Assembly (NCBI GenBank): GCA_005778115.1
Contig: SXKJ01000145.1
Coordinates: forward strand, 13,916-77,915
Source: Planctomyces sp.
GTDB taxonomy: Bacteria; Planctomycetota; Planctomycetia; Planctomycetales; Planctomycetaceae
DNA: 64,000 nucleotides
Direction of reading: 5' to 3'
Position numbers and translations under genes: made by a program. The notes under the pieces are model-generated. The model saw only the letters and a program-made list of their open reading frames with translations. It did not search any database and was not told the DNA's origin. Below, in pieces: positions 2,790-55,916 of the stretch (the first letter of the stretch is position 1; each line of letters opens with the position of its first letter).

Positions 2790-3245
2790 TCTGTTTCCGC
2801 TGCCCGCGTCGAATGGATCGGAATCAGCCCCGGCAATCGACAACCCATTAAATCGCGTGACGAAGTGGCCGTCGCTGTCGGCACGGGCGTTGACGGCGAC
2901 TATCACTCAAAGAAGAAGCCAGGGGGCAAGCGACAAGTGACGCTGATTCAAGCGGAGCACTTCGCCGTGATCGCGGCCAACGCCGGACGAGATTCTGTCA
3001 CTCCAGAGTTATTCCGCCGCAACATTGTTGTCAGTGGCATCGAACTGGCTCCGCTGATCGGCCGCCGCTTCCGCATCGGGGAAGCGCTGCTCGAAGGGAC
3101 TGGTCCCTGCACTCCCTGTTCGCGAATGGATGAAAACCTTGGCGAGGGGGGCCGACTCGCCATGTCGGGGCTGGGAGGACTGACGACAATCGTGATCGAA
3201 CCGGGACGCATCCGCCGGGGTGATCCCATCACGATTGCGGAGTGA
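2775..3245 (+). CDS. MOSC domain-containing protein
   Basis: Translation has GDYHS, RQVTLIQAEH, FRRNIVVSG, RFRIGEALLEGTGPCTPCSRMDE and GGLTTIVIEPGRIRRGDPI, including the conserved MOSC Cys motif. Confidence 0.8.
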   Translation: MTNHPSVSAARVEWIGISPGNRQPIKSRDEVAVAVGTGVDGDYHSKKKPGGKRQVTLIQAEHFAVIAANAGRDSVTPELFRRNIVVSGIELAPLIGRRFRIGEALLEGTGPCTPCSRMDENLGEGGRLAMSGLGGLTTIVIEPGRIRRGDPITIAE

Positions 3246-4806
3246 ATCGTGACCAGCCGATCGCTCGCTGCAACTGAAACTGAGCGACGTTGTAGTCGTT
3301 GACCGCTCGCAGATATTCCCGGCGGGCTTGAGCGAGTGCTTGCAGTGATTGCAGCGTCTCCAATGGCAGGCCCTGAGCGTTGCGAATGCGTTCCGAGTTT
3401 CGTTCAAACGAACTGGCCGCCGCGTGAATACCTTCCTTGGCCACGCTGATTTGCCGCTGACGGGCCGCGACTTGAGTGTGTGCCTCGACCACTTCCCGCG
3501 CGATCCGATCAAGCGTTGCGATCTCGCGCCAACGAGCTTGATTCACACGCGAGGTCGCTTCCGCTCGCGCGGCTTTCTCACCCAGGCCGAGGTTGCGGAC
3601 TTCCCAGTAGGCTACGGCATCGACATCTAATCGCTGATCAGGGCGTCGAAAGTTGTCGCCCAGGCCCCCTCCAAATCCGCCGTAGCTGACTCCTAGCAAA
3701 ACACTCGGCAACAGCGGTGCGTGTTGTTCTCGCTTCAATCGCGCGCATGCTTCGGCGACGAACTGCTGTTGCTCACAAATCTCCGCGCGGTGCGATAAGC
3801 CCTCCGCCACCAGTTCCTGGATCGAACCGCCCGGACTTTGGAGCGACATCGGGACGACGGTCGTTTCGGTCGGCAGCAGTTCCACAGTCGGGTCGATGTG
3901 CAGTAACTGCGCGAGCCGTGCCGACGCGACTTGTACCGCCTCTTCTGCTCGAACGGAGTCATTGCGTCGCACCGAGAGTTCCGCGCGAGCGCGGTCGTAG
4001 TCGGCGACGAGTCCCTGGCCGAGGTCGGCGTAGGCTTTGGTCACCTCGGCCAACTTGTTCGCATGACGTTCAATCTCACGAGCGATCGCCAACTCCTGAT
4101 TGGCTCGCAAGAGTTCCAGGTACGCGACCGCGGCGGCGAGCATCGTGTCTTGCTCGGCCACCGTGGCGGAATACTGGCGCGAGGCGGCGGCGTGCTCGGT
4201 GATGTTCGGTTGATGAATCGCATCCGCCAAATGAAACGAGGCCAGGATCCCCGGCACGGCGGGCGAACCGGCTCCGACCGCGCTGGCTCCGAGACCAGCG
4301 AAGCCCGCGTTCCGACTGGTACTGAAGATGTCCCCCTCGACGTTTTGAATTCGGCCTTCATGCTTATTCCAGTTGGCACCGGCTCTGATCGACGGCAGCC
4401 ACAATGCTTCGGCCCGCGCGTGCTGCGCGTAGGCTTCATTGATCCGCTCGCGAGCAAACGCGACGTTGGGATTCTGGCCGGCCGCAAGCTGCATCGCAGA
4501 AGCGAGGTCGATGGCGAATCCGGTTGGCGAAGTCGGCACCTCCCCATTCTTGGCATTCGCTGACTGATCTGCGCTTGGCTTGGCAGGAACCTCCAAATCC
4601 ATCGTAAACGAAGAGGGCTGAATGATGTTGGATGACTCGGAAGTGTCGGCGCTAGAAACATGAAGCTTGCCGTTCGCCGGCTGGCTGGCCACCGGATGCG
4701 GAACGATCTGACGAACCTCGGCGGTGGGCGCGGTCGCGCAGCCGCCGACAATGGCCAGCAGACCACAGCCACTCGCGAAGCCAAGTTGTCGCAGCACGGC
4801 GAACAC
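3229..4806 (-). CDS. Outer-membrane efflux protein (TolC/OEP family), lipoprotein-type signal
   Basis: GTG start. There is a lipobox-like LLAIVGGC, two OEP-like helical repeats (e.g. LPSIRAGANW, RAELSVRRND, LLPSVLLGVSYGGFGGG) and an RREYLRAVNDYNVAQFQLQRAIG end. It is the last gene of the RND operon. Confidence 0.85.
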   Translation of the reverse strand: MFAVLRQLGFASGCGLLAIVGGCATAPTAEVRQIVPHPVASQPANGKLHVSSADTSESSNIIQPSSFTMDLEVPAKPSADQSANAKNGEVPTSPTGFAIDLASAMQLAAGQNPNVAFARERINEAYAQHARAEALWLPSIRAGANWNKHEGRIQNVEGDIFSTSRNAGFAGLGASAVGAGSPAVPGILASFHLADAIHQPNITEHAAASRQYSATVAEQDTMLAAAVAYLELLRANQELAIAREIERHANKLAEVTKAYADLGQGLVADYDRARAELSVRRNDSVRAEEAVQVASARLAQLLHIDPTVELLPTETTVVPMSLQSPGGSIQELVAEGLSHRAEICEQQQFVAEACARLKREQHAPLLPSVLLGVSYGGFGGGLGDNFRRPDQRLDVDAVAYWEVRNLGLGEKAARAEATSRVNQARWREIATLDRIAREVVEAHTQVAARQRQISVAKEGIHAAASSFERNSERIRNAQGLPLETLQSLQALAQARREYLRAVNDYNVAQFQLQRAIGWSRFTPQS

Positions 4807-5088
4807 GAATCAGCGCCCTCCTTGACGCGGCGGCAACTTCTGCCGTTGCCGAGCACGGAAACAGCTCCGCAAACGACACGACGTAACGCCGCGAGTTCGG
4901 AATCGGCAAGGTGGGGCGACCTTATCCACGATTCCGACAGCTCGGAGGAATCATGTGGCAATAGTCGTGTCTGTCACGTAAGCCGGGCCGACTTGTCAGC
5001 TACCGTTGAGTTTGCGGTCTACAGCCGATTTCTTTGCCAAAAAGCTGCGGCAAAGGAATGGAGCCAGAGGAATGATCCTCAGCGGCGA

Positions 5089-6520: not shown

Positions 6521-9500
6521 TTAGATGTCGGAATGAAAAGCGCTCTCCGGGTCTTCGGGATCGAGAGAGGCGGACTTAGTCGTGGCACGCGATTGAACGA
6601 TCGCGAAGATGGCGGGCAGGATCAGCAATGTTGCGAACGTGGCGGCCAGTAGACCACCCATCACGGCTCGGCCGAGCGGTGCGGTTTGCTGGCCGGATTC
6701 GCCGAGGCCCAAGGCCAGTGGCAACATGCCGGCGAGCATGGCGGCGCTGGTCATCGTGATCGCTCGCAAGCGGCTGGTCGCGCCGTACACAGCGGCGATG
6801 TGGGACGGGCACTCTTGCCCGTCAGTCCCATCTTCGGGTCGGGCAAGAGTGCCCGACCTACGGCGTTCCTCGGCGAACGTCACCAACAGAATCGCATTGG
6901 CCATCGCGACGCCGAGACTCATGATCGCGCCGATGAAGCTTTGGATGTTGAGCGTGCTGCCGGTCAGCAGCAGCGATAGCGCGACACCGGTGATCACGGC
7001 CGGCGCGGTTGAGACCGTGATGAACGCCAGTCGCCACGACTGAAAGTTGGCGGACAACATCAGGAAGATCACGAGCACCGCCAGCAGCAGTCCGATGCCC
7101 AGTCCATTCATGATCGAGTTCAGCGGGGGGATTTGGCCGCGTAGTTCGTGTGAAATGGTGGGGGGCTTCGGCGGGTCGGGCTTGTCAGCGGCTTTCGCGG
7201 CGGCGACCGCTTCGGCGTGAGATTTCGCTTTGGCGTCCGCGTCTTGTTTGGCGACGGCGTCCAGGGCTTGCCTGATTTGTTGCGAGACCGCGCCGATATC
7301 AGCTCCGGCGATGTTCGCGGTGAGGCTGAGTTCACGTTTCATGTTGTAACGGTCATATTCGCCGGGCGCGACCGCGTTCGTGAGCGACGCGACATCACGC
7401 AGCAACAGCGGTTGCCCCGCATGACTTCCACTGCCCCGTTGGATCGGAACTGCTCCGAGATCTTCGACACTGTCGAGCTGCCGCTGGGGAATCTCAACCT
7501 GCACTTGATAGCCGATGCCGGTCTTCGGATCGGGCCAGTAGTTCGGGACGACGAAGCGGCTCGACGATGTCGCAGTCACGACCGAGCGGGTGACGTTCGA
7601 CATCGTCGTGCCGCTCATCCCGGCTTTCTCGCGATCGACTTTGATCTCGACGGTCGGATAGTCGAGCGATTGTGCGACCTGCATGTCTCGGATCGCGGGG
7701 AGTTTCGTCAGCGCGGCTTGAACTTTGCCGATGTACTCGCGGTTCTCGTCAAGATTGCCGCCACGAGCGGCGATCTCGATCGGCGTGGCCGAGCCGAAGC
7801 TCATGACTTCGCTGATGATGTCGGCCGGCTCGAACGAGAACCGCACGTCGGGAAAACGATTGCGGAACTCGGCGCGAATTTCTTCTTTCATTGCTTCCGT
7901 GCTGATCCCGGAATCGGGTTTGAGGGCGATTCGCAGTAATCCTTCCTCCGGCCCACGCGAGAAGTGATAGACCGAATTGATTGGAAAGCTCGCCGGTACG
8001 GTGCCGATGTAGCCGAGCGTCAACCCGACGTTGTTCTCGCCGACTTTTTGTTTGACCGTGTCGAGGATCTTCAGCGCGATCTGCTCAGTCGTGTCGATAT
8101 GCGTGCCATCGGGAGCCCGGAATCGCAAACGGAATTCGCCAGCATCGACGGTGGGAAAGATCTCGATGCCGAGTTGGCCGCTCGCCCAGAAGAGGGTTGC
8201 ACCGCAGGCGACGAGGTAAGCCGGAACGATAAGCCAACGCAGGCGAACAGAGGCAACGACAAAGCGGGAGAACCAACCGTTTGCTGGCGAGCCGGAGGGC
8301 GTTAGCCCCCGGACAATCTGCAACGTCCGGGGGCTAACGCCCTCCGGCTCACCAAGTCGGCTTTCATTCGACGAGCTGCGCAATAGCCACGTCGAGACCA
8401 CCGGCACGAAGGTGCTCGACAGGATGTAGGAGGCGATCATCGAGAAACCAACCGCGAGCGACAGCGGGACGAAGAGTTCGCGAGCAGCTCCCTGCATGAA
8501 GAAGCTCGGTACAAAGACCGCCAGGATGCAAAGCATCGCCAGCAATCGCGGGATCGCGGTTTGAGCGTTGCCCATCCGCACGGCCCAGGCGATTGAGTTC
8601 ACACGCCGCATCTGCGTGTGGATGTTTTCGATTTCCACCGTCGCTTCATCGACCAAGATGCCGACCGCCAGGGCGAGTCCGCCGAGGGTCATCAGGTTGA
8701 TCGTCTGACCGCACAGCCACAGGCCCACGATCGACGCGGCGATCGCCAGCGGGATATTGAGCACGACGACCAACGCGCTCCGCCAGTCGCGCAGGAACAC
8801 CAACACCATCAGGCCAGTGAGGATCGCCCCCAGGACTCCTTCGGTCGCAAGGCTGTTGATCGCGCGTGTGACATACGGTGACTGATCGAACTCGAACGAG
8901 ACGTTGATGTCCGGCGGAACTTCGGCGCGGAACTTCGGCATCGCCCCTTTGATTTCGTCGATAACGCTCATAGTGGAAGCGTCGGCTCGCTTGGTCGCGA
9001 GGATGTAAACCGCTCGGCGGCCGTTGACGAGCGAGTAGCCAGCCGTGATGTCGGCGGCGTCTTCGATGACACCGATGTCGCGCAGATAGACGGTGCTCGC
9101 GCTGCCGATCGAGGAGGCTCCACCAGTTGGTCCGCCTCCCGTACCGACTTTGATCGGGATGTTGCCCAGCTCGCGAATGTCTTTGACCATCGCGTTGGTC
9201 GGGACCATCGGATAGCTGTCACCGATCTTCAGATTGCCCGACGGGCTGACGGCATTTCCAGCCACGAGCGCACTGACGACGTCATCCGGTGCGATGCCAT
9301 ACGCTCGCAAGCGATCTGGGTCGGTCCTCACGACGATGCTGCGTGCGCTCCCGCCGAAGGGGGGCGGAGCGCTCACACCAGGGAGCGCCGAAAACATCGG
9401 CCGCACTTTCATCAGCGCCATGTCGGAGATTTCGGCAATCGTGCGAGTCTCAGACGAAAAGACCAGATAGCCGACCGGCACGCTGCCAGTGTCGAACCGC

Positions 9501-9940
9501 ATGACGAACGGCGGAACGGTGCCGGGAGGCATCATGGCTCGCGAGCGATTGACGTAATTGATCGTCTCGGCCATCGCCTGAGCCATGTTCGTCCCCGGAT
9601 GGAACATGAGCTTCATCAACGCTGTTCCTTGAACGTTGCGGCTCTCGACGTGATGGATGCCGTTGATGTAAAGAAAATGGTACTCGTAGTAATTGGTCAG
9701 CAACCCTTCCATCTGAGCCGGGTCCATGCCGCCATACGGCTGGCAGACGTAAATCACCGGCAGGTTGAGCGCCGGGAAGATGTCGATGGGCATCCGCTTG
9801 AGCGGCAATTCGATGCCGACCTTCGCCAGCGCGGAATCAAACGCCTTCGGCCGCACGGCAACGAACGCCGTCAGCAGGACAGCAATGATCCCGACCATCA
9901 CGGTGATTGGGCGACGCAGAGCAAAAATAATCGGGTTCAT
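6521..9940 (-). CDS. Efflux RND transporter permease (AcrB/CzcA superfamily), 1139 aa, carrying two in-frame palindromic insertions
   Basis: Internal ATG at 9940 gives MNPIIFALRRPITVMVGIIAVLL. The protein has a 12-TM RND layout, DQSPYVTRAINSLATEGVLGAILTGLMVLVFLRDWRSALVV, and TMTSAAMLAGMLPLALGLGESG near the C-terminus. The ORF track extends the ORF to 10162, but that extension looks non-coding. Confidence 0.9.
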   Translation of the reverse strand: MNPIIFALRRPITVMVGIIAVLLTAFVAVRPKAFDSALAKVGIELPLKRMPIDIFPALNLPVIYVCQPYGGMDPAQMEGLLTNYYEYHFLYINGIHHVESRNVQGTALMKLMFHPGTNMAQAMAETINYVNRSRAMMPPGTVPPFVMRFDTGSVPVGYLVFSSETRTIAEISDMALMKVRPMFSALPGVSAPPPFGGSARSIVVRTDPDRLRAYGIAPDDVVSALVAGNAVSPSGNLKIGDSYPMVPTNAMVKDIRELGNIPIKVGTGGGPTGGASSIGSASTVYLRDIGVIEDAADITAGYSLVNGRRAVYILATKRADASTMSVIDEIKGAMPKFRAEVPPDINVSFEFDQSPYVTRAINSLATEGVLGAILTGLMVLVFLRDWRSALVVVLNIPLAIAASIVGLWLCGQTINLMTLGGLALAVGILVDEATVEIENIHTQMRRVNSIAWAVRMGNAQTAIPRLLAMLCILAVFVPSFFMQGAARELFVPLSLAVGFSMIASYILSSTFVPVVSTWLLRSSSNESRLGEPEGVSPRTLQIVRGLTPSGSPANGWFSRFVVASVRLRWLIVPAYLVACGATLFWASGQLGIEIFPTVDAGEFRLRFRAPDGTHIDTTEQIALKILDTVKQKVGENNVGLTLGYIGTVPASFPINSVYHFSRGPEEGLLRIALKPDSGISTEAMKEEIRAEFRNRFPDVRFSFEPADIISEVMSFGSATPIEIAARGGNLDENREYIGKVQAALTKLPAIRDMQVAQSLDYPTVEIKVDREKAGMSGTTMSNVTRSVVTATSSSRFVVPNYWPDPKTGIGYQVQVEIPQRQLDSVEDLGAVPIQRGSGSHAGQPLLLRDVASLTNAVAPGEYDRYNMKRELSLTANIAGADIGAVSQQIRQALDAVAKQDADAKAKSHAEAVAAAKAADKPDPPKPPTISHELRGQIPPLNSIMNGLGIGLLLAVLVIFLMLSANFQSWRLAFITVSTAPAVITGVALSLLLTGSTLNIQSFIGAIMSLGVAMANAILLVTFAEERRRSGTLARPEDGTDGQECPSHIAAVYGATSRLRAITMTSAAMLAGMLPLALGLGESGQQTAPLGRAVMGGLLAATFATLLILPAIFAIVQSRATTKSASLDPEDPESAFHSDI
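6801..6862. repeat. Double-hairpin palindrome (GACGGGCActctTGCCCGTC ... GTCGGGCAagagTGCCCGAC-CTAC) inside the RND pump CDS
   Basis: Read from the sequence. On the coding (minus) strand it reads GTAGGTCGGGCA..., which matches the GTAGGTC-hairpin family. It encodes ...TLARPEDGTDGQECPS... in the pump. Confidence 0.75.
8286..8353. repeat. 28-bp-arm palindrome inside the RND pump CDS; sister copy of the intergenic element at 38956..39026
   Basis: GGCGAGCCGGAGGGCGTTAGCCCCCGGA (8286..8313) pairs with TCCGGGGGCTAACGCCCTCCGGCTCACC (8326..8353). It encodes ...GEPEGVSPRTLQIVRGLTPSGSP... in frame. Confidence 0.85.
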
Positions 9941-10054
9941 GCGGCGTATCGGAATGAAACGACGGGCCAACATCAAGCTGGAAATCTTATCGGACTTGCG
10001 GTCGCGAACAGATTCGTGACCATATTGGGAACAACCCAAACCGAGGCGTCCCAC

Positions 10055-10315
10055 ATGAACCCGGCGAGCTCCAACAATCCAGCGACGGACTTCCTCACGG
10101 CCGACGCCGAGTGGGATGCGGGGGACTTGGCCTGCGGGGAACTGTTGCTGGATTTGCTCCACAAAATGCGAGCGCTACCTCCCGGTTCCGTGCTGAAGCT
10201 GATTGCCACAGATCCGGCCGCTCGGATCGATATCGGGGCTTGGTGCCGGGTCACGAAAAATCCGCTGGTGGCGAAGTCGCCCCCAGTCTTCTTCATTCAA
10301 CGAAAAGAGAACTGA
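10055..10315 (+). CDS. TusA/SirA-like small sulfur-carrier-fold protein (86 aa)
   Basis: Internal ATG at 10055 of ORF 9599..10315. DAGDLACGELLLDLLHKMRALPPGSVLKLIATDPAARIDIGAWCR matches the TusA layout, with CGEL replacing the canonical CPxP. The upstream part of the ORF is antisense to the RND gene. Confidence 0.6.
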   Translation: MNPASSNNPATDFLTADAEWDAGDLACGELLLDLLHKMRALPPGSVLKLIATDPAARIDIGAWCRVTKNPLVAKSPPVFFIQRKEN

Positions 10316-10690: not shown

Positions 10691-10790
10691 CAAAACCGAC
10701 GTAGGTCAGGCTTTCCAGGCGGACTCGATCAACGATTAACGTGATTTGGCCAATTCGAGTCAGGCTGGAAAGCCTGACCTACGGTTTTTG
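10691..10790. repeat. About 36-bp-arm palindrome of the GTAGGTCAGGC-hairpin family
   Basis: CAAAACCGACGTAGGTCAGGCTTTCCAGGCGGACTCGA (10691..10728) pairs with TCGAGTCAGGCTGGAAAGCCTGACCTACGGTTTTTG (10755..10790). It lies between the DsrE-like and MetE-like genes. Confidence 0.85.
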
Positions 10791-10812
10791 AATCAGTTCC
10801 CAGGAACGCCAC

Positions 10813-12342
10813 ATGCAATACGTCGATCGGCACGCATTGGAACCCGACGTCAGCTTTAACGGCGGTGACATGGACTGCGGCAGCGGGTTGCTGTTGCTTA
10901 TTCGTCGCCACATGGACCCGCTGCGAGCCGGCGGATTGCTCGAAATCCGATCGACCGAATCGAGTGTCGAAGAGGATCTGCCAGCGTGGTGCCGCATGAC
11001 CAAGAACGAATTGGTTTCGTGCGTACGATCAAACTCGGAATGGCGTTTTCTTGTCTGCCGAGGGTCTCTCGCGGATCGAGAGCCGACGAGTATTCCAGGT
11101 AGCCGACATCGTGAGAGTTCGGACCGAACTCTCACGGCTTTAGCTACGGCCACGCCTCTGCCCGCACCAGCGCCTCCGATCGCGCCACTGTCGGTCATGG
11201 GGATCGGGAGTTGGCCGCGGCCGCGCTGGATGTTGCAAACGATTCACGAGCACATGGAAGGGCGGCTGACGAATCAGGAGTTTCACGAGATTGGTGACGA
11301 CGCAGTGCGGTTCGCGGTTGATTCGCAGCTTAAAGCCGGTGTCGATGTCGTGACCGATGGCGAACAGCGTCGCGACAGCTACGCCAGTTTCGTTGGCGGA
11401 CTGCTCGATGGCTGCCAACTTATTCCAATCACCGACCTGCTGCCGTATGTGGACGATCCAGTAAAGTTCGAAGCCGAGTTGCGGGCGCTCGATGTACCGG
11501 CGGGAAGCGTGCGGCATCCGGCTGTGTTCGGACCGATCCGTCGCAGCCGACCGCTGGCCGTTCATGAAATTCAGTTCGCCAAAACGTTGACGGATCGACC
11601 CATCAAAGTTGCTCTGCCTGGACCGTACCTGCTGACTCGCACGATGTGGATGGACTGCATCACCGATCGCGTGTACGAGACTCGTGACAAACTCGCCGAC
11701 GATGTGGTGCGTGTGATGCGTGAAGAGTTGCAGGGATTGCTCGCTGCGGGTGCGGCACTCGTGCAGTTTGACGAACCGGTCCTCACCGAAGTGGTCTTTG
11801 GCCAATCGGCCGGCAATCGCAGTTTCATGTGCGGCGCTCTCAGCGAGAAGCTCGGCACGGTGGAGGAACTGGCGTTCGCAGGCGAATTGATCAATCGCGT
11901 CGTCGAGGGAATTCCACGCGATCGGACGGCTCTGCACATCTGCCGTGGCAATTGGACTCGCGACGAATCGGTCGCGTTAGCCGGCAGCTATGAACCGCTC
12001 GTGCCGCTGCTGAGGTCTCTCAAGGTGGGCACGTTTTTTCTGGAGCTGTGTACTCCGCGCGCCGGCGAGATCGACGTGCTGGCCGCGCTTCCGGACGACT
12101 GCCGCATCGGCGTGGGAGTCGTCAATCAAAAGCTTGATGTGATTGAATCGATAGAAGAGATCATGGCCAAGGCCGAGATTGCCATCCGTGTCTTTGGCCC
12201 ACACCGAGTCTTGATGAATCCTGACTGCGGCTTCGCCACGTTCGCCGACAACCCGGTGGCGTCCGCACATGTCGCCACAGAAAAGCTCGCGGCGATGGTG
12301 AGCGCCGCTCGGCAATTGCGAACCCGACACCACGTCGAGTAG
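10813..12342 (+). CDS. Fusion protein: N-terminal TusA-like domain plus C-terminal cobalamin-independent methionine-synthase-like (MetE C-terminal/UROD-fold) Zn-methyltransferase domain
   Basis: N-terminus: GGDMDCGSGLLLLIRRHMDPLRAGGLLEIRSTE...AWCRMTKNELV. C-terminus: GSWPRPRW, VVTDGEQRRDSY, LVQFDEP, and the MetE-type Zn ligand pattern LHICRGN (H-x-C), FLELCTPRAGE and NPDCGFATF. Confidence 0.75.
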   Translation: MQYVDRHALEPDVSFNGGDMDCGSGLLLLIRRHMDPLRAGGLLEIRSTESSVEEDLPAWCRMTKNELVSCVRSNSEWRFLVCRGSLADREPTSIPGSRHRESSDRTLTALATATPLPAPAPPIAPLSVMGIGSWPRPRWMLQTIHEHMEGRLTNQEFHEIGDDAVRFAVDSQLKAGVDVVTDGEQRRDSYASFVGGLLDGCQLIPITDLLPYVDDPVKFEAELRALDVPAGSVRHPAVFGPIRRSRPLAVHEIQFAKTLTDRPIKVALPGPYLLTRTMWMDCITDRVYETRDKLADDVVRVMREELQGLLAAGAALVQFDEPVLTEVVFGQSAGNRSFMCGALSEKLGTVEELAFAGELINRVVEGIPRDRTALHICRGNWTRDESVALAGSYEPLVPLLRSLKVGTFFLELCTPRAGEIDVLAALPDDCRIGVGVVNQKLDVIESIEEIMAKAEIAIRVFGPHRVLMNPDCGFATFADNPVASAHVATEKLAAMVSAARQLRTRHHVE

Positions 12343-12400: not shown

Positions 12401-13051
12401 TTACGGACTCGGCGTCTCAATTGGGCGATTCTTGCGATAGCGACTCAGCAATTGGCGGAGTTTCTGAATGGCATCCTGGCTGAGATCGCAATGCAATTTC
12501 GCCTTGGGGCCGTACAACTTCACTTCGCCATCCTCCAAACTGATCACGACGTGAGTGGTCTCTTTGCTGGCTTTCCACTCCAGGCAGTAGTCGGCATGAA
12601 AGCCGCCTCCTTTCTTTCCGTCGGTGTACGGTGCGAACGAAGTCCGCGCCGAGAACATCGCCGTGAATTGCTCGCCATCGGTCCCCTGCATGGCAAGCAA
12701 CTCTTCATAGAACGGATAGCCGTGCCGCTTGATCGTCTTCGCCCGAGAAAGTTCCTGCACCAGCGACTCCGGTTCCCAGAATTCACTGGGAAGACCTTCG
12801 TAAAGCAGCGCCACTCCCGTTTTCGGAATGCCCGCCAGAACCGTTTGCAGACGATTGAAGTTGGTTTCGATCGCCGGAGGTGGCGCTGCGTCAAAGGTGA
12901 CTTTGACCTCCTGCTTGCACCCGACGAGCCACACGACACACAACACGATCAACCCGCGAAGAGACACGACAGTGCTCCAGAACAAATCACCGTAGCCCGC
13001 CCCCTTGTGGGGCGGATGATTCCAACAATCTGCGCGAATCATCCGAGCCAC
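12401..13051 (-). CDS. Hypothetical lipoprotein
   Basis: The ORF has protein-like composition and a signal/lipobox, LIVLCVVWLVGC. I recognised no family. The start is GTG at 13051 or ATG at 13042. Confidence 0.55.
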   Translation of the reverse strand: MARMIRADCWNHPPHKGAGYGDLFWSTVVSLRGLIVLCVVWLVGCKQEVKVTFDAAPPPAIETNFNRLQTVLAGIPKTGVALLYEGLPSEFWEPESLVQELSRAKTIKRHGYPFYEELLAMQGTDGEQFTAMFSARTSFAPYTDGKKGGGFHADYCLEWKASKETTHVVISLEDGEVKLYGPKAKLHCDLSQDAIQKLRQLLSRYRKNRPIETPSP

Positions 13052-13112
13052 ATGAGCCTGAGCTACAAAAAATCAGAAAGGCAATCATTCGCCGCGATCG
13101 AAGCCGGCTCGA

Positions 13113-38955: not shown

Positions 38956-39026
38956 GGCGAGCCGGGTGGCGTCAGCCCCCGGATGTCGTGGAGATGAGTC
39001 CGGGGGCTGACGCCACCCGGCTCGCC
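38956..39026. repeat. Perfect 28-bp inverted repeat with 15-nt spacer; sister of the copy inside the RND pump gene
   Basis: GGCGAGCCGGGTGGCGTCAGCCCCCGGA (38956..38983) pairs with TCCGGGGGCTGACGCCACCCGGCTCGCC (38999..39026). Confidence 0.9.
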
Positions 39027-40841: not shown

Positions 40842-42404
40842 ATGCGTCGTTCTCGTCGTGAATTCTTGGCGGATGTCGGCAGCGGGATGTTGGTCGCTGG
40901 AGTCGGATACAGCACAGCCCTCGACCTGGGATTATCCACGGTCAGAGCGGCGGAAGGTTCCGAGGCGAATGGGTTGACGTTCGGTGGTCTCGAACCGCTT
41001 GTCGGTTTGATGCAGGACACGCCGGTCAACAAGCTGCTCTCGACGCTGGTCGAGAAGATGCACGATGGCACGGACTTGAAGACCCTCGTGGCTGCCGCGG
41101 CACTCGCAAACGCTCGAACCTTCGGCGGCGAGGACTACATCGGCTTCCACACGATGATGGCCATGATGCCGGCCTATCAGATGTCTCAGGAACTGCCGAC
41201 CGAGAAGAAGGCTCTGCCCGTCTTGAAAGTGCTCTATCGAAACACGAATCGGATTCACGATTTCGGTGGACGCAAGAAAGAGGTTCTGCATCCCATCACA
41301 GCGGGCACGCTGCCAACGAGTGTCGTGCCGGGCGATGCGGTGCGGGCCGCCGTTCACAGCAAAGACATCGACAATGCAGAGAAGACATTCGCGGCGGCGG
41401 CGATCTCTCCGGAAGAAGCCTTCAATGCTGTGATGTATGCCGTCGATGACAACACCGAAGTGCATCGCGTCGTGCTGCCGTACCGAGCTTATGCGTTGCT
41501 CGATCTCGTCGGACCGGAGCAAGCGGTGACGATGTTGAGGCAATCGGTTCGTTACTGCGTGAAGAGCGAGCGAAACGTCAACCGCAACGCCGAATTCGAT
41601 CGGCCGCGCACGCTGTTGCCGAAGGTGTTCGATCAACACAAGCTCGCAGGCAAGACGCCAGGGACGCGGGTGCCGGATGATGCTTGGGTGGAATCCTTCT
41701 GTCAGACGCTCTTCAAGGCGACGCCCGATCAAGCCGCTGACTTCGCGGGGGCCGCTTTGGCCGAAGGGATCGCTCCCGATGCGATCTGCGAAGCGATCTG
41801 CCTGGCTGCGAACCAATTGGTCTTGCGCGACGTCGGACGTCGCGAGAAGGAAGTTCAACCGGGCAAGCCTCTGGGAAGCGTGCATGGCGATTCGATCGGC
41901 GTGCATGCGTCCGACTCGGCGAATGCGTGGCGGAACATGGTTAAGTTCAGCAATGCTCGCAATCAGTTCGCTTGCACGATTCTGGGGGCGTTCCAAGTTG
42001 CCTACGACCGCATCAATCGCGGTGGCGACTTCCTCAACTGGCAGCCTCGCCCGCACGCAGAGCATCTCGAAAAGATCACGACCCGCGATCCCAATAAGTT
42101 GTTGGCCGAAGCCGAAGCCGCGATCCGAGCAAACGAGCAAGCTCAGGCCGCCGCGATCGTGCATCTGATCGGAGAGTTGCGTCATTCGCCGCGACCGGTG
42201 CTCGATCTGTTGTTGAAGTATGCGATCACCGAAGACGGTGCTCTGCACGCCGAGAAGTACTACCGCACCGCCAGCGAAGAGTTCGCCAACATGCGGCAAC
42301 CGTTCCGCTGGCGACAACTCACGGCGCTGGCCCGCGTCACCGCCAGCGAATTTGGTTCGCCCGCTGCCGGTTGTGATGAGGCAATGGAGTTATTGAAGGT
42401 GTGA
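40842..42404 (+). CDS. Hypothetical protein with twin-arginine-type signal (520 aa), family not recognised
   Basis: Internal ATG at 40842 gives MRRSRREFLADVGSGMLVAGVG. The protein looks all-helical. Its stop overlaps the start region of the next gene (GTGAgcATG). Confidence 0.6.
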   Translation: MRRSRREFLADVGSGMLVAGVGYSTALDLGLSTVRAAEGSEANGLTFGGLEPLVGLMQDTPVNKLLSTLVEKMHDGTDLKTLVAAAALANARTFGGEDYIGFHTMMAMMPAYQMSQELPTEKKALPVLKVLYRNTNRIHDFGGRKKEVLHPITAGTLPTSVVPGDAVRAAVHSKDIDNAEKTFAAAAISPEEAFNAVMYAVDDNTEVHRVVLPYRAYALLDLVGPEQAVTMLRQSVRYCVKSERNVNRNAEFDRPRTLLPKVFDQHKLAGKTPGTRVPDDAWVESFCQTLFKATPDQAADFAGAALAEGIAPDAICEAICLAANQLVLRDVGRREKEVQPGKPLGSVHGDSIGVHASDSANAWRNMVKFSNARNQFACTILGAFQVAYDRINRGGDFLNWQPRPHAEHLEKITTRDPNKLLAEAEAAIRANEQAQAAAIVHLIGELRHSPRPVLDLLLKYAITEDGALHAEKYYRTASEEFANMRQPFRWRQLTALARVTASEFGSPAAGCDEAMELLKV

Positions 42405-42406
42405 GC

Positions 42407-44887
42407 ATGAAACGCTGGTTGATCGCATTCGCCGTCCTCGTTTTGGGGGCGGCGAATTTTTTCGTTCTGGGACAGGACGCTTCGCCGAAAGGCGAAACGG
42501 CCGCGGCCGATCTCGATTTCTTCGAGAGGCGGGTCCGACCGCTGTTGGTGCAGCGCTGCTTTGAGTGTCACTCGGCGAAGGCGGAGAAGTTGAAGGGTGG
42601 ATTGCTGCTCGACAGCCGCGAGGCGATTCTCACGGGAGGTGATACCGGACCGGCGGCGGTGGTCGGCGATGTCGAGAAGAGCCTGATCGTGCAGGCGATT
42701 CGATTCGACAACGAGAACGTACAGATGCCTCCGGCGGGAAAATTGCCGGAGGCGGAGATCGCCGTCCTGACCGAATGGGTGCGTCGCGGACTTCCGTTCC
42801 CGGCGGTCAATGCGGCAAAGGCAAACCGACGAGCCATCGACATCGCTGAAGGGAAGAAGCATTGGGCGTTTCAAAAGTTCGTAGTTCCGCCTTTAGGCGG
42901 TTCTCCCACGGACCGCCTCCAGGCGGAACTACGAACTCGGATCGACGACTTCATCCACACGGCACAGCGCAAGCACGGATTATCGCCGTCGCCAGAGGCA
43001 TCCAAGGGAACTCTGATTCGGCGATTGACGTTTGATTTGCTCGGCTTGCCGCCGTCACCGGAGGACGTTCAAGAGTTTCTCGCGGATGAATCTCCCGATG
43101 CTTACGAGCGACTCGTCGAGCGATTGCTGGCTGATCCCCGATTCGGCGAGCGTTGGGCACGGATGTGGCTCGATCTGGCGCGGTATTGTGACATCGGTGA
43201 GTCGTGGCGAACCGGCGAAGGGCAGCCGTGGCTGTTTCGCGATTGGGTCGTGAGGACGATGAACGAAGACCTGCCGTATGACGAGTTTGTTCGCAAGCAA
43301 TTGGCGGCCGATCTGCTGCCCGACTTCCAGCCGACCGACGCGGCGGCGCTGGGATTCCTTGGGCTCAGCCCTTCGTATTGGAAGGAATTGAAGCTCGACC
43401 ACAATGTCATCAAGCAGGTTGTCTCGGAGGAGTGGGAAGAAAGGATTGAGGCGATCGGCGGGACGTTTCTGGGACTGACTCTGGCGTGTGCACGATGTCA
43501 CGACCACAAGTTTGACCCGATCACACAGCAGGATTACTACGGGCTGGCGGGAGTGCTGGCGAGCATCAAGATCGACGACAGGCCGATCATCGCCAAGCCG
43601 CTCGCGGATCAGGCGGCGGCAGCGCGAGCGCAATTGAAAGACTCGCAGGCTCAGTTGGACAAACTGCTCAAGGAGCCGAAGCTGTCTGACACCGCGACCG
43701 ACGAAGAGAAAGCGAAGGCTGCGGACGTCGCGAAGCAGGTCGAGTCGCTGCGAAACAGGATCTCGGCGTTGCAGCAGACGCCGCAGCTCAACACGCCGGT
43801 GGCATTTGGTGTCACCGAGGCGGCGATGATCGTGCTACCCGATGGGCCGAATCGGACGAAGATCGAATACAAGTCGAGTGAACCGCAAAACGTGGCGATG
43901 CAAATTCGCGGGAATGCGGCGAATCCCGGAGCGGTGGTGTCACGTCGGTTCGTGACGGTGCTTTCGCCCAATGAGCCAGCTCCATTCAAGAACGGCAGCG
44001 GGCGATTGGAATTGGCAAACGCGGTCGTCACTGATGCGGCTCCGCTGGCGGCGCGGGTCATCGTCAATCGGATTTGGGCACATCACTTCGGACGCGGTCT
44101 CGTGGCGACGCCAAGCAACTTCGGCACGCAAGGAGAGAAACCGACTCATCCGGAATTGCTGGATGACCTTGCCGCGCGATTCATCGAGCATGGCTGGTCG
44201 CTGAAGTGGCTGCATCGCGAAATCGTGTTATCGGGGACTTATCGGCAAAGTTCGGCCGACCGCCGAGAGCCGACAGCCGAAAGCCGTTATCACACTTCTC
44301 CCGACGAAGGCAAAGTGGATCGACGGCTGTCGGCTGTCGGCTCTCGGCATTCGGCCGATCCGGAGAATGTTTGGCTGGCGCGAATGCCGGTGCGGAAGTT
44401 GGACGTTGAGGCTTGGCGGGACTCAATGCTCATGGCAACGGAAGAATTGGATCGCCGCGTTGGTGGTGTTCCGCAGGAGTTGAGCGAGACGGGGAATGTT
44501 CGGCGGACGGTTTATGGTCTCATCCGGCGACGTGAGTTGTCGGACTTGTTGCGGCTACATGATTTTCCTGATCCGGTTGCTCACAGCGGATCGCGGACGC
44601 CGACGACGACTCCGTTGCAGCAGCTCTTTGTGTTGAACAGCTCGTTTCTGCAAGCTCGCGCGGCGGCGTTGGCCGGTCGGGTGTTGCGTGAGTACCCGCA
44701 AGACACGGCGGCTCAGATTCGAACGGTGCATCGTTGGCTCTTTGCTCGTGAAGCGACGGACGAAGACATTCAATTCGGGACTGAGTTCCTGGCAACGTCG
44801 CAAGCCGAGGGGGTAATTGCCGACCAGGCGTGGCGTCACTACGCTCAGGCTCTGCTGGCGACCAACGAGTTGCAGTTCGTCGAGTGA
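42407..44887 (+). CDS. PSCyt1 (planctomycete cytochrome c) + DUF1549 + DUF1553 + PSD1 domain protein, carrying two in-frame palindromic insertions
   Basis: Translation has FFERRVRPLLVQRCFECHS (CxxCH), LIRRLTFDLLGLPPSPEDVQEF, CARCHDHKFDPITQQDYY and a C-terminal LLATNELQFVE. Confidence 0.9.
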   Translation: MKRWLIAFAVLVLGAANFFVLGQDASPKGETAAADLDFFERRVRPLLVQRCFECHSAKAEKLKGGLLLDSREAILTGGDTGPAAVVGDVEKSLIVQAIRFDNENVQMPPAGKLPEAEIAVLTEWVRRGLPFPAVNAAKANRRAIDIAEGKKHWAFQKFVVPPLGGSPTDRLQAELRTRIDDFIHTAQRKHGLSPSPEASKGTLIRRLTFDLLGLPPSPEDVQEFLADESPDAYERLVERLLADPRFGERWARMWLDLARYCDIGESWRTGEGQPWLFRDWVVRTMNEDLPYDEFVRKQLAADLLPDFQPTDAAALGFLGLSPSYWKELKLDHNVIKQVVSEEWEERIEAIGGTFLGLTLACARCHDHKFDPITQQDYYGLAGVLASIKIDDRPIIAKPLADQAAAARAQLKDSQAQLDKLLKEPKLSDTATDEEKAKAADVAKQVESLRNRISALQQTPQLNTPVAFGVTEAAMIVLPDGPNRTKIEYKSSEPQNVAMQIRGNAANPGAVVSRRFVTVLSPNEPAPFKNGSGRLELANAVVTDAAPLAARVIVNRIWAHHFGRGLVATPSNFGTQGEKPTHPELLDDLAARFIEHGWSLKWLHREIVLSGTYRQSSADRREPTAESRYHTSPDEGKVDRRLSAVGSRHSADPENVWLARMPVRKLDVEAWRDSMLMATEELDRRVGGVPQELSETGNVRRTVYGLIRRRELSDLLRLHDFPDPVAHSGSRTPTTTPLQQLFVLNSSFLQARAAALAGRVLREYPQDTAAQIRTVHRWLFAREATDEDIQFGTEFLATSQAEGVIADQAWRHYAQALLATNELQFVE
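42878..42936. repeat. Palindrome GTTCGTAGTTCCGCC...GGCGGAACTACGAAC inside the PSCyt/DUF1553 CDS
   Basis: Arms at 42878..42900 and 42913..42936. It encodes ...KFVVPPLGGSPTDRLQAELRT.... A sister copy is at 46389..46455. Confidence 0.85.
44253..44356. repeat. About 104-nt palindrome (GCCGAGAGCCGACAGCCGAAAGCCGTTATCACACTT ...) inside the PSCyt/DUF1553 CDS
   Basis: Arms at 44253..44296 and 44313..44356. It encodes ...SADRREPTAESRYHTSPDEGKVDRRLSAVGSRHSA.... An intergenic sister copy is at 55812..55916. Confidence 0.8.
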
Positions 44888-45651: not shown

Positions 45652-45870
45652 ATGGCGGACGGATTGTTGATACATCCGACGCACGAACAGCTCGCCGCGT
45701 TTGAGACCGGCCGGTTGAGCGATGACGACTCGGCCGTCGTCGAGCAGCACTTGTCGGCGTGTGCGGATTGTTGTCAGTGGCTCAAGCAGTCGCCGGAACA
45801 CGACAGTTACGTTGCGTTGCTGCGCGAGGCCGCCTCGTCCGGCGTGGCAGAAGAGACTCCCGCGAATTAA
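45652..45870 (+). CDS. Small zinc-finger-like (anti-sigma N-terminal-like) protein, 72 aa; possibly the detached N-terminus of the downstream kinase
   Basis: HEQLAAFETGRLSDDDSAVVEQHLSACADCCQWL is an H-x3-C-x2-C pattern. It is in the same frame as the kinase ORF and is separated from it by TAA plus 15 nt. Confidence 0.5.
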   Translation: MADGLLIHPTHEQLAAFETGRLSDDDSAVVEQHLSACADCCQWLKQSPEHDSYVALLREAASSGVAEETPAN

Positions 45871-45885
45871 CCGACAGACATCGCG

Positions 45886-47259
45886 ATGAGCGGCGAGACT
45901 CCCCTCCCGCGCGAATCGAGTTTGCCAGTCTTGTCCGAGGATGTCGTCCCACCGATCGCCGGATTGCCGAGCGAGCTGGTGAACCATCCGCGTTACCGAG
46001 TGATCCGCTCGTTGGGTTGCGGTGGAATGGGTGCCGTCTTCGAGGCGGAGCATCGGTTGATGCAGCGGCGTGTGGCGTTGAAGATCATCAAGCCGCAATG
46101 GCTGAGCAATTCGGAAGCGGTCGCTCGATTCCGACGTGAGATGCAGGCGGCGAAGCTGGTGCATCCGCACGTCGTCACCGCATTCGATGCCGAGCAAGCG
46201 GGGGATGTGCATTTCCTGGCGATGGAGTTTGTCGACGGAGTGAATCTCGCCGAGTTGGTTTCGCAGCGCGGGCCGTTGTCGGTCGAGATGGCGTGCGAGT
46301 GCATTCGGCAGGCGGCGTTGGGACTGCAACATGCGTACGAGCATGGGATGGTGCATCGCGATATCAAGCCAGGGAATTTGATGGTGACGTTCGTAGTTCC
46401 ACCTTCAGGCGGTTCTGGTTCTCAACGAAGACCACCTGAAGGCGGAACTACGAACGTCAAGATCCTCGACTTCGGGCTGGCTCGGTTTGCCAGCGAAGGG
46501 ATCGAAGGGGGCGACACATCGGCGGGGACGCTGCTGGGCACGCCGGACTTCATGGCTCCGGAGCAAGCACGGAATTCGCATGAAGCAGATATTCGGAGCG
46601 ATCTCTATAGCGTGGGATGCACGTTGTATTTTTTGCTGACTGGCGAGGTGCCCTATCCGGGTGGGAAGACCGCATTGGAGCGGGCGCTCGCACATGCCGA
46701 GCGTGCTCCGCAGTTGTTGGCGACTTTTCGTGGCGATGTGCCGCCGGCGCTGCAAGCGGTGCTCGATCGCTTGTTGGCGAAGCGGCCGGAGGATCGGTTT
46801 CAGACGCCGGCGGAACTTGCGGTGGCATTGGAGCCGTTCGTTTCTTCGTCGCAGTTTATCCGTCATCTGGCGGCTGGGTTGATTTCGAACGCTCCTGTTT
46901 CGCATCGGCCCATGGCGGCGGGATTGAAGCGAGTGTTGATGGCGTTCGGATGCGTCGGGTTCGTGTTGGTGATGGCGATCGTCGTGCAGGTGGCCACCGA
47001 TAAAGGGGACTTGCGAATTCGATCCGACGTTGACGGCGTGGTCCTGCTGCTCAGCCAAGAAGGCCAGGCGGTGTGGCGAATCGAGGCCGAGGCGGGGGAT
47101 TCGGTCAAGCGGTTGCCATCGGGGCAGTATGCGTTGGAGTTAAAAGATTCTCCGAACGACTTGCGATTGAGCACGACTCGCGTTGTGCTTCGCCGTGGTT
47201 GCTCGGCGGAGGTGGTTGTTTCACGCGAGCATCGGAATTCAATCAATCCTCCCCACTGA
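45886..47259 (+). CDS. Serine/threonine protein kinase with a C-terminal TM anchor and an in-frame palindromic insertion in the catalytic core
   Basis: Kinase motifs LGCGGMGAVFEA, VALKIIK, HRDIKPGNLMV, KILDFGLA and GTPDFMAPEQ are present, with a TM segment VLMAFGCVGFVLVMAIVVQV. Confidence 0.9.
   Translation: MSGETPLPRESSLPVLSEDVVPPIAGLPSELVNHPRYRVIRSLGCGGMGAVFEAEHRLMQRRVALKIIKPQWLSNSEAVARFRREMQAAKLVHPHVVTAFDAEQAGDVHFLAMEFVDGVNLAELVSQRGPLSVEMACECIRQAALGLQHAYEHGMVHRDIKPGNLMVTFVVPPSGGSGSQRRPPEGGTTNVKILDFGLARFASEGIEGGDTSAGTLLGTPDFMAPEQARNSHEADIRSDLYSVGCTLYFLLTGEVPYPGGKTALERALAHAERAPQLLATFRGDVPPALQAVLDRLLAKRPEDRFQTPAELAVALEPFVSSSQFIRHLAAGLISNAPVSHRPMAAGLKRVLMAFGCVGFVLVMAIVVQVATDKGDLRIRSDVDGVVLLLSQEGQAVWRIEAEAGDSVKRLPSGQYALELKDSPNDLRLSTTRVVLRRGCSAEVVVSREHRNSINPPH
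46389..46455. repeat. Palindrome GTTCGTAGTTCCACC...GGCGGAACTACGAAC inside the kinase CDS
   Basis: Arms at 46389..46412 and 46432..46455. It encodes FVVPPSGGSGSQRRPPEGGTTN, between the HRDIKPGN catalytic loop and the DFG motif. Confidence 0.9.
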
Positions 47260-47353
47260 GCTTGCCTCAGTGGTTCACGGGTTTCTGCGCTACTGACGTG
47301 TATGCGAGCGTAGTGCAGAGGCCCGCGAGCCACTGAGGCAAGCTCAGTGGGGG
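47251..47353. repeat. About 103-bp palindromic element with perfect 23-bp terminal arms; the kinase stop codon lies in the left arm
   Basis: CCCCACTGAGCTTGCCTCAGTGG (47251..47273) pairs with CCACTGAGGCAAGCTCAGTGGGG (47330..47352). Each arm is itself a hairpin, and there is an inner pair CTGCGCTAC/GTAGTGCAG. Confidence 0.9.
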
Positions 47354-55811: not shown

Positions 55812-55916
55812 CCGGCCGAAAGCTGAGGGCCGAAAGCCGAAAGCCGTTATCACACTTTCCAGCAATCAAAAAGTGTGATAACGGCTTTCGGCGATCGGCT
55901 CACGGCTTTCGGCCGG
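55812..55916. repeat. About 105-bp palindrome (CCGGCCGAAAGC...GCCGAAAGCCGTTATCACACTT / AAGTGTGATAACGGCTTTCGGC...GGCTTTCGGCCGG)
   Basis: Arms at 55812..55857 and 55871..55916. It fills almost the whole gap between the DUF1501 gene and mnmE. Confidence 0.9.

Follow-up and report, generated by a model that had tools for sequence, protein, structure and literature searches.

Repetitive extragenic palindromes (REPs) with a GTAG tag and the hairpin-forming inverted doublets composed of them (REPINs) have reportedly been studied, together with the REP-associated tyrosine transposases (RAYTs, TnpAREP), by Nunvar in 2010, Bertels and Rainey in 2011 and Ton-Hoang/Messing in 2012. RAYTs are single-strand DNA nucleases/ligases of the HUH/Y1 class, and REPs are mostly regarded as specific to a species or genus. 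Other small palindromes, the Rickettsia palindromic elements (RPEs), occur in frame within protein genes, where they are thought to be tolerated as surface loops; RPE-1 measures about 100–150 bp and is known only from Rickettsia. In enterobacteria, the same extragenic sites are said by Bachellier, Gilson, Hofnung and co-workers to be occupied by species-specific REPs or bacterial interspersed mosaic elements (BIMEs). Here, a 67-nt palindrome (element A) is described which lies in the gene for a Hanks-type Ser/Thr kinase on a 64-kb stretch of DNA from Planctomyces sp. (GenBank assembly GCA_005778115.1, contig SXKJ01000145.1, positions 13,916–77,915 of the forward strand), referred to in the following as the window. 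Judged by its sequence, this palindrome is a REPIN composed of two inverted GTAG-tagged REP units and belongs to a multi-phylum family linked to RAYT genes; very probably, it has landed in a turn of the kinase and is tolerated there as a loop.

The GTAG- and CGTC-tagged REP superfamilies have been defined by Di Nocera et al. (2013; PMC3733652), who reported GTAG families from the Planctomycetes–Verrucomicrobia–Chlamydiae (PVC) group, including R. baltica (Planctomycetes) and O. terrae, as well as degenerate tags similar to the GTCG variant described below. The same study documents REPs inside open reading frames (ORFs), often as dimers encoding 20–30 aa, with intragenic cases comprising a Ser/Thr kinase of O. 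terrae, where the element is located outside the catalytic core, and hypothetical proteins of R. baltica. Hence, the novelty suggested by a first-pass annotation of the window, whose author was not aware of such insertions in Planctomycetota, has to be abandoned (PMC3733652). The concept is already published, and what is new is a family member in a new host gene.

With the REP/REPIN–RAYT systems, the elements studied here share the position of the GTAG tag beside a short hairpin that covaries, the folding of inverted doublets as a long hairpin, many copies that are dispersed and, in genomes other than the source genome, mostly extragenic, the same REP on the sides of a single HUH/Y1 gene, and occasional ORF copies encoding 20–30 aa. 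They differ in that the 24-nt unit is common to at least five phyla, though two of the RAYTs are only 49% identical, that A resides inside the catalytic core of an enzyme, and that close relatives differ in the element occupying the orthologous site. As in the enterobacterial REP/BIME case, orthologous positions carry palindromic units that are not the same from one related species to the next, implying that fixed sites undergo turnover or concerted evolution; those sites, however, are intergenic, whereas the sites considered here are in frame within genes and their occupants come from unrelated palindrome families. The parallel to RPEs drawn in the first-pass annotation holds for the behavior, that is, the in-frame position and the modeled loop, but not for family membership, which is ruled out by tag (GTAG and not CGTC; PMC3733652), length (60–67 nt), hosts (Planctomycetota and other phyla) and associated enzyme (RAYT). 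A full-text literature search with the REP sequence of the window and the encoded peptides returned unrelated primer hits or none.

Sequence and Folding of the Intragenic Doublets

The arms of A were found exactly at the positions of the kinase gene given in the first-pass annotation (Table 1), and translation of the ORF agrees with an in-frame location between HRDIKPGNLMV (catalytic loop) and KILDFGLA (DFG motif). The palindrome opens with a G that completes the Thr168 codon as its third base, and the following 66 nt (46390–46455) encode F169–N190, FVVPPSGGSGSQRRPPEGGTTN, so that tryptic peptides across the insert would read ...NLMVTFVVPPSGGSGSQR and RPPEGGTTNVK. The second copy noted in an unrelated gene with the same 12-nt outer ends could be confirmed as well, with its start corrected from 42878 to 42877. 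This element B is placed in frame in the linker between PSCyt1 (aa 53–113) and PSCyt2 (aa 180–389), encoding F160–T179 with the translation FVVPPLGGSPTDRLQAELRT. Overlooked in the earlier work was that each arm of A and B itself forms a small hairpin, CCGCCT-NN-AGGCGG, following the GTAG tag GTTCGTAGTT, which is present in all four arms. Relative to the family consensus, the left and the right unit of A are each one base off, in both cases by a synonymous change of CCG to CCA (for the right unit when read on the plus strand). In the window, the 12-mer GTTCGTAGTTCC is matched perfectly at exactly four places, corresponding to the four arms of A and B, and apart from these no more degenerate copies were found in the window with up to 6 mismatches in 24 nt. 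A search of the whole window against all Rfam families at gathering thresholds gave no match.

Table 1. Position of the doublets A and B, their host genes and associated features (numbering of the window).
Feature	Position	Strand	Description
Doublet A	46389..46455	.	REPIN-type, located in frame in kinase gene; inverted pair of GTAG-tagged REP units with a spacer of 19 nt
Left REP unit of A	46389..46412	+	GTTCGTAGTTCCACCTTCAGGCGG; corresponds to GTTCGTAGTT + CCACCT-TC-AGGCGG
Right REP unit of A	46432..46455	- (inverted)	CCACCTGAAGGCGGAACTACGAAC
Hanks-type Ser/Thr kinase ORF	45886..47259	+	457 aa; Pfam PF00069 Pkinase, E = 1e-43; hosts A
zf-HC2 (anti-sigma-like) segment	45652..45870	+	Upstream of kinase; fused to kinase in orthologues, here cut by in-frame TAA (45868–45870)
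Doublet B	42877..42936	.	Same family as A; units 42877–42900 (+) and 42913–42936 (-), 12-nt spacer
PSCyt1/PSCyt2/PSD1 gene	42401..44887	+	828 aa; domains from Pfam; hosts B and a second, unrelated palindrome
Different-family palindrome	44252..44358	.	GCCGAnAGCCG-type arms; in frame inside PSD1 domain; encodes SADRREPTAESRYH...RRLSAVGSRHSAD

Element A represents a near-perfect hairpin over its whole length, and the pairing reaches 3 nt beyond each end (GAC...GTC, 46386–46458). Folded as single-stranded DNA, values of -29.5 kcal/mol (z = -8.4) were obtained for the plus strand and of -33.3 kcal/mol (z = -10.7) for the minus strand, while the sense RNA of A reached -53.4 kcal/mol. Element B folds as DNA at -28.7 kcal/mol (z = -9.3), and none of 200 shuffles folded as well as A or B. 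The sequences bordering the doublets (GGTGAC and GTCAAG for A, TCAAAA and TCGGAT for B) do not contain a direct repeat.

Distribution of the Family and Linkage to RAYT Genes

Scanning one genome per species with the pattern TTCGTAGTTCC-N22-52-GGAACTACGAA resulted in at least 119 matches, at least 108 of them with both full 12-nt ends, in at least 115 loci of many phyla. Hence, a motif confined to the two sites of the window, which the first-pass annotation had named as evidence against its proposal, is not what is observed. Among the matches listed, the elements are highly uniform (GTTCGTAGTTCCGCCTTYAGGCGG ... CCGCCTRAAGGCGGAACTACGAAC) apart from their variable spacers, the inner spacer between the 24-nt units amounting to about 0–28 nt in doublets. 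Hosts among the matches listed are Planctomycetota (Gemmataceae, Thermoguttaceae, and Planctomycetaceae), Verrucomicrobiota, Kiritimatiellales (Kiritimatiellota), Acidobacteriota, Desulfobacterales (Desulfobacterota) and a few others. Because the complete chromosome of Desulfonema magnum 4be13 carries the element, this breadth is not a binning artefact. Multiple loci were found within single metagenome-assembled genomes (MAGs), with at least 22 in one Planctomycetia MAG, at least 12 and at least 8 in two Gemmataceae MAGs, at least 8 in an Acidobacteria MAG and at least 8 in a further MAG.

For analyzing the anatomy of the unit, 56 distinct REP units were gathered from all sequences fetched, selected for carrying the tag. 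The 24-nt unit consists of GTTYGTAGTT and a subsequent 6-bp mini-hairpin with the stem CCGCCT/AGGCGG. Columns 1–3, 5–6, and 8–10 of the tag are invariant in these tag-selected units, and the stem is found in the variants CCGGCT/AGCCGG, CAGCCT/AGGCTG, CAAGCT/AGCTTG, CCCACT/AGTGGG, and CCACGT/ACGTGG. Altogether, 81.8% of the stem cells pair, all six stem pairs have changed on both sides, and the covariation score of the stem is 0.36 versus 0.14 for shuffles (0 of 500 reaching 0.36), with slid controls not exceeding 0.14. In three elements, GTCG replaces GTAG in both arms (locus L116, 1311–1370 and 4753–4828; locus L022, 3120–3178). This joint change of the arms is either characteristic of a subfamily or the result of correction within the hairpin. 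At the first of the two PSD1 gene sites discussed below, the right-arm change in L116 is non-synonymous (L to R).

Linkage to RAYT genes is found in several genomes. In a Planctomycetota MAG (L062), a RAYT gene at 3105–3721 has the element on both sides (3033–3093 and 3717–3778), and an intact homologue in L067, encoded on the minus strand (4396–4995) and 49% identical to the former, is accompanied by REP units at 5011–5034 and 4258–4376. In the isolate Pontiella sulfatireligans (L128), the RAYT gene (1501–2100) is located between a tandem REP array and a doublet, and in a KSB1 MAG (L209), the REP flanking a RAYT homologue is a stem variant carrying an identical tag. The best match of the RAYT in the PDB is TnpAREP of E. 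coli (4ER8, E = 2.5e-7), and both the catalytic tyrosine and the HUH motif coincide in the alignment; support also comes from the NCBIfam model NF047646, which matches at E = 3.5e-21. A protein search gave 1,292 RAYT homologues of about 200 aa, and UniRef lists the Pontiella sulfatireligans protein among them under the name REP-associated tyrosine transposase. In sum, the first-pass proposal of a REP- or RPE-style element is correct with respect to the former, considering the GTAG tag, the covarying mini-hairpin, the inverted doublet and the RAYT gene flanked by the same REP.

Two peculiarities of the RAYT loci may be added. The gene in L062 is interrupted by a frameshift located between the codons for the HUH motif and those for the catalytic tyrosine, reflecting either a decaying gene or an assembly error. 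In L128, about 10 tandem REP units of the same orientation (GTTTGTAGTTCAGCCTTCAGGCTG, with a period of about 43 nt) extend over 944–1484 directly upstream of the RAYT gene, and the doublet downstream has the CCGCCT stem, resulting in two stem variants beside one gene.

A recognition unit that has hardly changed between Planctomycetota, Verrucomicrobiota, Kiritimatiellota, Acidobacteriota, and Desulfobacterota bears on the idea of a strictly vertical, host-specific REP–RAYT partnership. The pair may keep a nearly frozen 24-nt unit over several phyla while the transposase diverges to the identity value given above.

Other types of mobile or repetitive DNA were considered and rejected. A miniature inverted-repeat transposable element derived from an insertion sequence with target-site duplication does not fit, as direct repeats are lacking at both A and B, the flanks of 106 copies tend to be complementary and not duplicated, and the enzyme is of the HUH/Y1 and not of the DDE type. 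The ends do not match the GTTRRRY and RYYYAAC cores of an integron attC site, and the copies are dispersed and not arranged in an array as expected for a CRISPR repeat.

The Kinase and Its Modified Turn

The kinase was aligned with 21 orthologues (56–85% identical) and four outgroup sequences. Relatives of the window are labeled Planctomycetaceae or Planctomycetia. The motifs VAxK, HRDxKxxN, DFG, and APE are present in the window protein, in which H157, R158, D159, K161, N164, D195, F196, G197, P225, and E226 are among the invariant positions, and all residues invariant in 26 homologues are kept. At the position of the insert, the outgroup kinases possess a turn of only 5–6 aa, for example, TRRGRV or TPDGRV, so that the 22 aa are absent from these sequences in the comparison suggested by the first-pass annotation, and five close orthologues show a short form of 8 aa. 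The AlphaFold2 model has a confident kinase fold, with a mean predicted local distance difference test (pLDDT) value of 80.5. Strands are modeled for residues 165–170 and 188–193, and the insert is predicted as coil with pLDDT below 50 at 173–180, thus forming a putative protruding loop that extends the strand pair, in line with the loop position suggested earlier. The corresponding turn is presumably that of the beta7–beta8 hairpin according to standard kinase nomenclature.

A scenario for the origin of A and B can be proposed as follows. REPINs presumably spread as hairpins of single-stranded DNA on which the RAYT acts in trans, and the same would apply to the family described here. One copy would have landed in the DNA for the turn joining the catalytic loop to the DFG motif, or would have replaced an earlier palindrome there, and a second one would have landed in the inter-domain linker of the neighboring PSD1 gene. 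Both copies, encoding peptides rich in Pro, Gly, Ser, and Thr, would have survived because they are stop-free in the frame used and because a protruding loop is likely harmless at the site. Element A would then neatly illustrate how an enzyme can take up a mobile DNA hairpin in its catalytic core and stay intact.

Several observations weigh against this explanation. Native turn residues are absent from the window kinase, indicating replacement and not the clean insertion into an ORF that had initially been assumed, and the lengths of the two palindromes (67 versus 60 nt) do not define a consistent insertion unit. Both family copies present in the 64 kb of the source genome are intragenic, and the tolerance of A in this genome could reflect relaxed selection, considering the in-frame stop codon upstream of the kinase. 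The window does not contain a RAYT gene. With NCBIfam NF047646 (REP-associated tyrosine transposase), the enzyme scores 75.6 bits (E = 3.5e-21), just below the curated cut-off of 80, and Pfam did not assign the frameshift-repaired L062 RAYT to any family at E ≤ 0.01, a gap closed by the PDB and NCBIfam matches. Moreover, we know of no system in which transposition of REPINs by RAYTs has been shown directly.

Possible Exchange of Palindromes at Orthologous Sites

The comparison of 22 orthologous proteins and 10 DNA loci points to repeated use of the kinase site. Segments of 14–48 aa which are mutually unrelated are present at exactly this point in 17 of the 22 orthologues, the other five having the 8-aa short form. 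At the DNA level, unrelated hairpins of -15 to -40 kcal/mol are found at the site in the six loci L120, L121, and L123–L126. Only L116 (protein P0008, 72% identical outside the site) shares the GTTCGTAG family and a related peptide, and its DNA is still palindromic, with paired changes of GTAG to GTCG and CTAC to CGAC. This is the opposite of an orthologue retaining the segment without nucleotide palindromy, which had been named in the first-pass annotation as an observation speaking against a palindromic element. The nearest relatives of the window kinase (P0002–P0004), 88–90% identical outside the site, carry other elements there, and from the pair P0006 and P0007, which is 94% identical, one protein has an insert of 29 aa and the other the short form.

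The PSD1 gene shows similar behavior at two sites. At site 1, a different GTAG doublet is present in L121 and L122, and behind it stands GGAACGAAGAAC, which seems to be left over from the right arm GGAACTACGAAC of the GTTCGTAG family. At site 2, L116 has the GTTCGTAG family in the place of the GCCGA-type palindrome of the window (Table 1). Finding different hairpins at the kinase site and both PSD1 sites in orthologues 80–94% identical suggests turnover of elements in situ. As a control, 27 paralogous kinases were evaluated, which derive from a metagenome scan with the kinase that gave only two true orthologues. By the same count, their turns comprise 8–16 aa without a palindromic insert; therefore, the hotspot belongs to this gene lineage. 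One old insertion with subsequent turnover in place is the favored sequence of events.

This leads to a variant of the scenario outlined above, refining rather than excluding it, for which we see an about even chance. An ancestral orthologue would have acquired an old palindrome once, and later elements including A would have replaced one another because insertion or repair was directed at existing hairpins. In addition to the unrelated segments at one point, the differing pair P0006/P0007, the relic-like GGAACGAAGAAC and the palindrome-free paralogues, this variant is favored by the five short forms, which with 8 aa exceed the 5–6 aa turn of the outgroups. Likewise, some REPINs (L085, 5584–5639; L003, 3014–3070; L063, 5908–5962) occupy the exact center of longer, unrelated palindromes, for example, GGGCGAGTCTTCGAGCC...[REPIN]...GGCTCGAAGACTCGCCC, and cross-pairing of the flanks over at least 12 pairs is found in 29.5% of the copies versus 16% of the controls (p = 0.046). 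However, these nesting statistics are weak, the sample comprises 22 proteins and 10 DNA loci, the elements in the window and in L116 may be due to common descent or to independent hits, and hairpin-targeted insertion of REPINs is a hypothetical mechanism.

Extending the idea, it can be tentatively proposed that the in-frame sites of both the kinase and the PSD1 gene are palindrome nests, at which families replace one another at one codon position by insertion or repair aimed at hairpins. In this case, the turn of the kinase and both PSD1 sites would provide a natural record of REPIN target choice, the unsolved step of REPIN spread, and nests would supply otherwise conserved proteins with rapidly varying surface loops. 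The presence of different hairpins at the same in-frame sites of near-identical orthologues could make target choice testable by comparative genomics.

Some of the inserts may have another origin. The kinase site of L124 (1642–1746) is filled by a long perfect palindrome with arms of repeated GAGTCGAGAG-like units. These units are similar to AGT CGA GAG, native codons in the L122 short form (4715–4753), a resemblance which hints at growth of some inserts in place from native sequence and not by transposition.

Integrity of the Kinase Gene and Possible Selection on the Hairpin

Returning to tolerance of a REPIN as a loop, it has to be considered whether the kinase is a pseudogene in the source genome, the element persisting via lost selection. 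The in-frame TAA separating the zf-HC2 segment from the kinase (...AEETPAN*PTDIAMSGETP) points in this direction, as orthologues read NQPT at this position and are single proteins of 500–545 aa. The split is also called in an independent Logan assembly. For the element itself, an assembly artefact was dismissed, given that 9 contigs, including independent Logan assemblies, carry the same protein. Nevertheless, we regard a pseudogene as unlikely. The kinase ORF of 457 aa is intact and, as mentioned, keeps all invariant residues, both base changes in A are synonymous, L116 has the same element family at the same site of a full-length 543-aa gene, and B lies in an intact gene of 828 aa.

Equally improbable appears a selected function of the hairpin, either as intragenic RNA or DNA structure (translation pausing, mRNA stability, a site for gyrase or IHF) or as a variable loop of use to the kinase. 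This would agree with the very stable sense-RNA hairpin of A, the presence of some hairpin at the kinase site in most orthologues, and the joint changes of arms in L116 and L022 (GTCG with CGAC), by which pairing is kept; published abstracts as well as PMC3733652 also report REPs to be active in mRNA stability and gyrase binding. On the other hand, five orthologues do without any long insert, and the inserted sequences are mutually unrelated, implying that a specific peptide or RNA is not conserved. Moreover, the two synonymous changes in A create A.C mismatches on the sense strand, thus weakening the hairpin, and the joint changes are equally explained by an element subfamily or intra-hairpin correction.

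Coding Versus Non-coding Copies

An ORF of at least 300 aa spans 31% of the elements (108), while the value for random 60-nt controls taken at the same loci is 66%; therefore, the family is mainly extragenic in these genomes. The copies occur on both strands. Nevertheless, in-frame copies exist in several further genes. In an alpha-2-macroglobulin gene (L098), Pfam domains are found on either side of the element, in HsdM (L033) it is located inside the N6_Mtase methylase domain, and in L102 it has DUF4954 on one side and DUF6819 on the other. For two further proteins, an FtsX permease (L081) and one of the TIR-NACHT type (L076), Pfam domains are present only upstream of the element, which is nonetheless placed far inside the ORF and followed by 458 and 189 codons of open frame, respectively.

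Depending on the gene, the left arm is read as VRSSAFRR or FVVPP.GG and the right arm as PPKGGTTN or RLKAELRT, whereas stop codons close the third frame, TAG in the left arm and TAA or TGA in the right arm. Because only 41% of the element frames are stop-free versus 68% for random 60-mers of the same loci, coding is not what the element is designed for, and ORF compatibility as a built-in property is ruled out; the in-frame copies are what selection left. For annotation purposes, the four peptides can serve as marks of REP-derived sequence in proteins and spurious ORFs of several phyla.

The differing frames among genes, the occurrence on both strands and the mostly intergenic location also bear out the first-pass argument that constraint at the protein level cannot explain the shared palindrome. 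An FVVPP...GGTTN protein motif common to both window genes, with incidental DNA palindromy, would account for the FVVPP start and the Gly-rich character of both copies but can be dismissed with near certainty, as it is refuted by the different right-arm frames of A (PPEGGTTN) and B (RLQAELRT), the VRSSAFRR reading of the left arm in other genomes, the majority of copies being intergenic on either strand, and the RAYT genes flanked by the REP unit found in the window.

Further Palindromes in the Window

Besides A and B, the window contains a number of other palindromes. The one at 55812–55916 has GCCGAnAGCCG-like arms as found in the PSD1 domain (Table 1), but is intergenic. An AcrB/RND transporter ORF on the minus strand (6524–10174; Pfam ACR_tran, E = 5e-159) includes two in-frame palindromes, at 8285–8354 and 6800–6861, the former being similar to a palindrome at 38956–39026. 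In-frame hairpin DNA seems to be common in the source genome. The palindromes at 796–863, 10700–10783, 11099–11147, 12992–13066, and 6800–6861 start with (C)GTAG and finish with CTAC(G), and probably represent further GTAG-tagged REP families. Of these, 11099–11147 is situated within an ORF (10792–12339) with TusA and Meth_synt_2 domains. Finally, a palindrome with 43-nt arms which are 88% complementary (47251–47352) covers the stop codon of the kinase gene (47257–47259) as well as the predicted start of the next ORF (47347).

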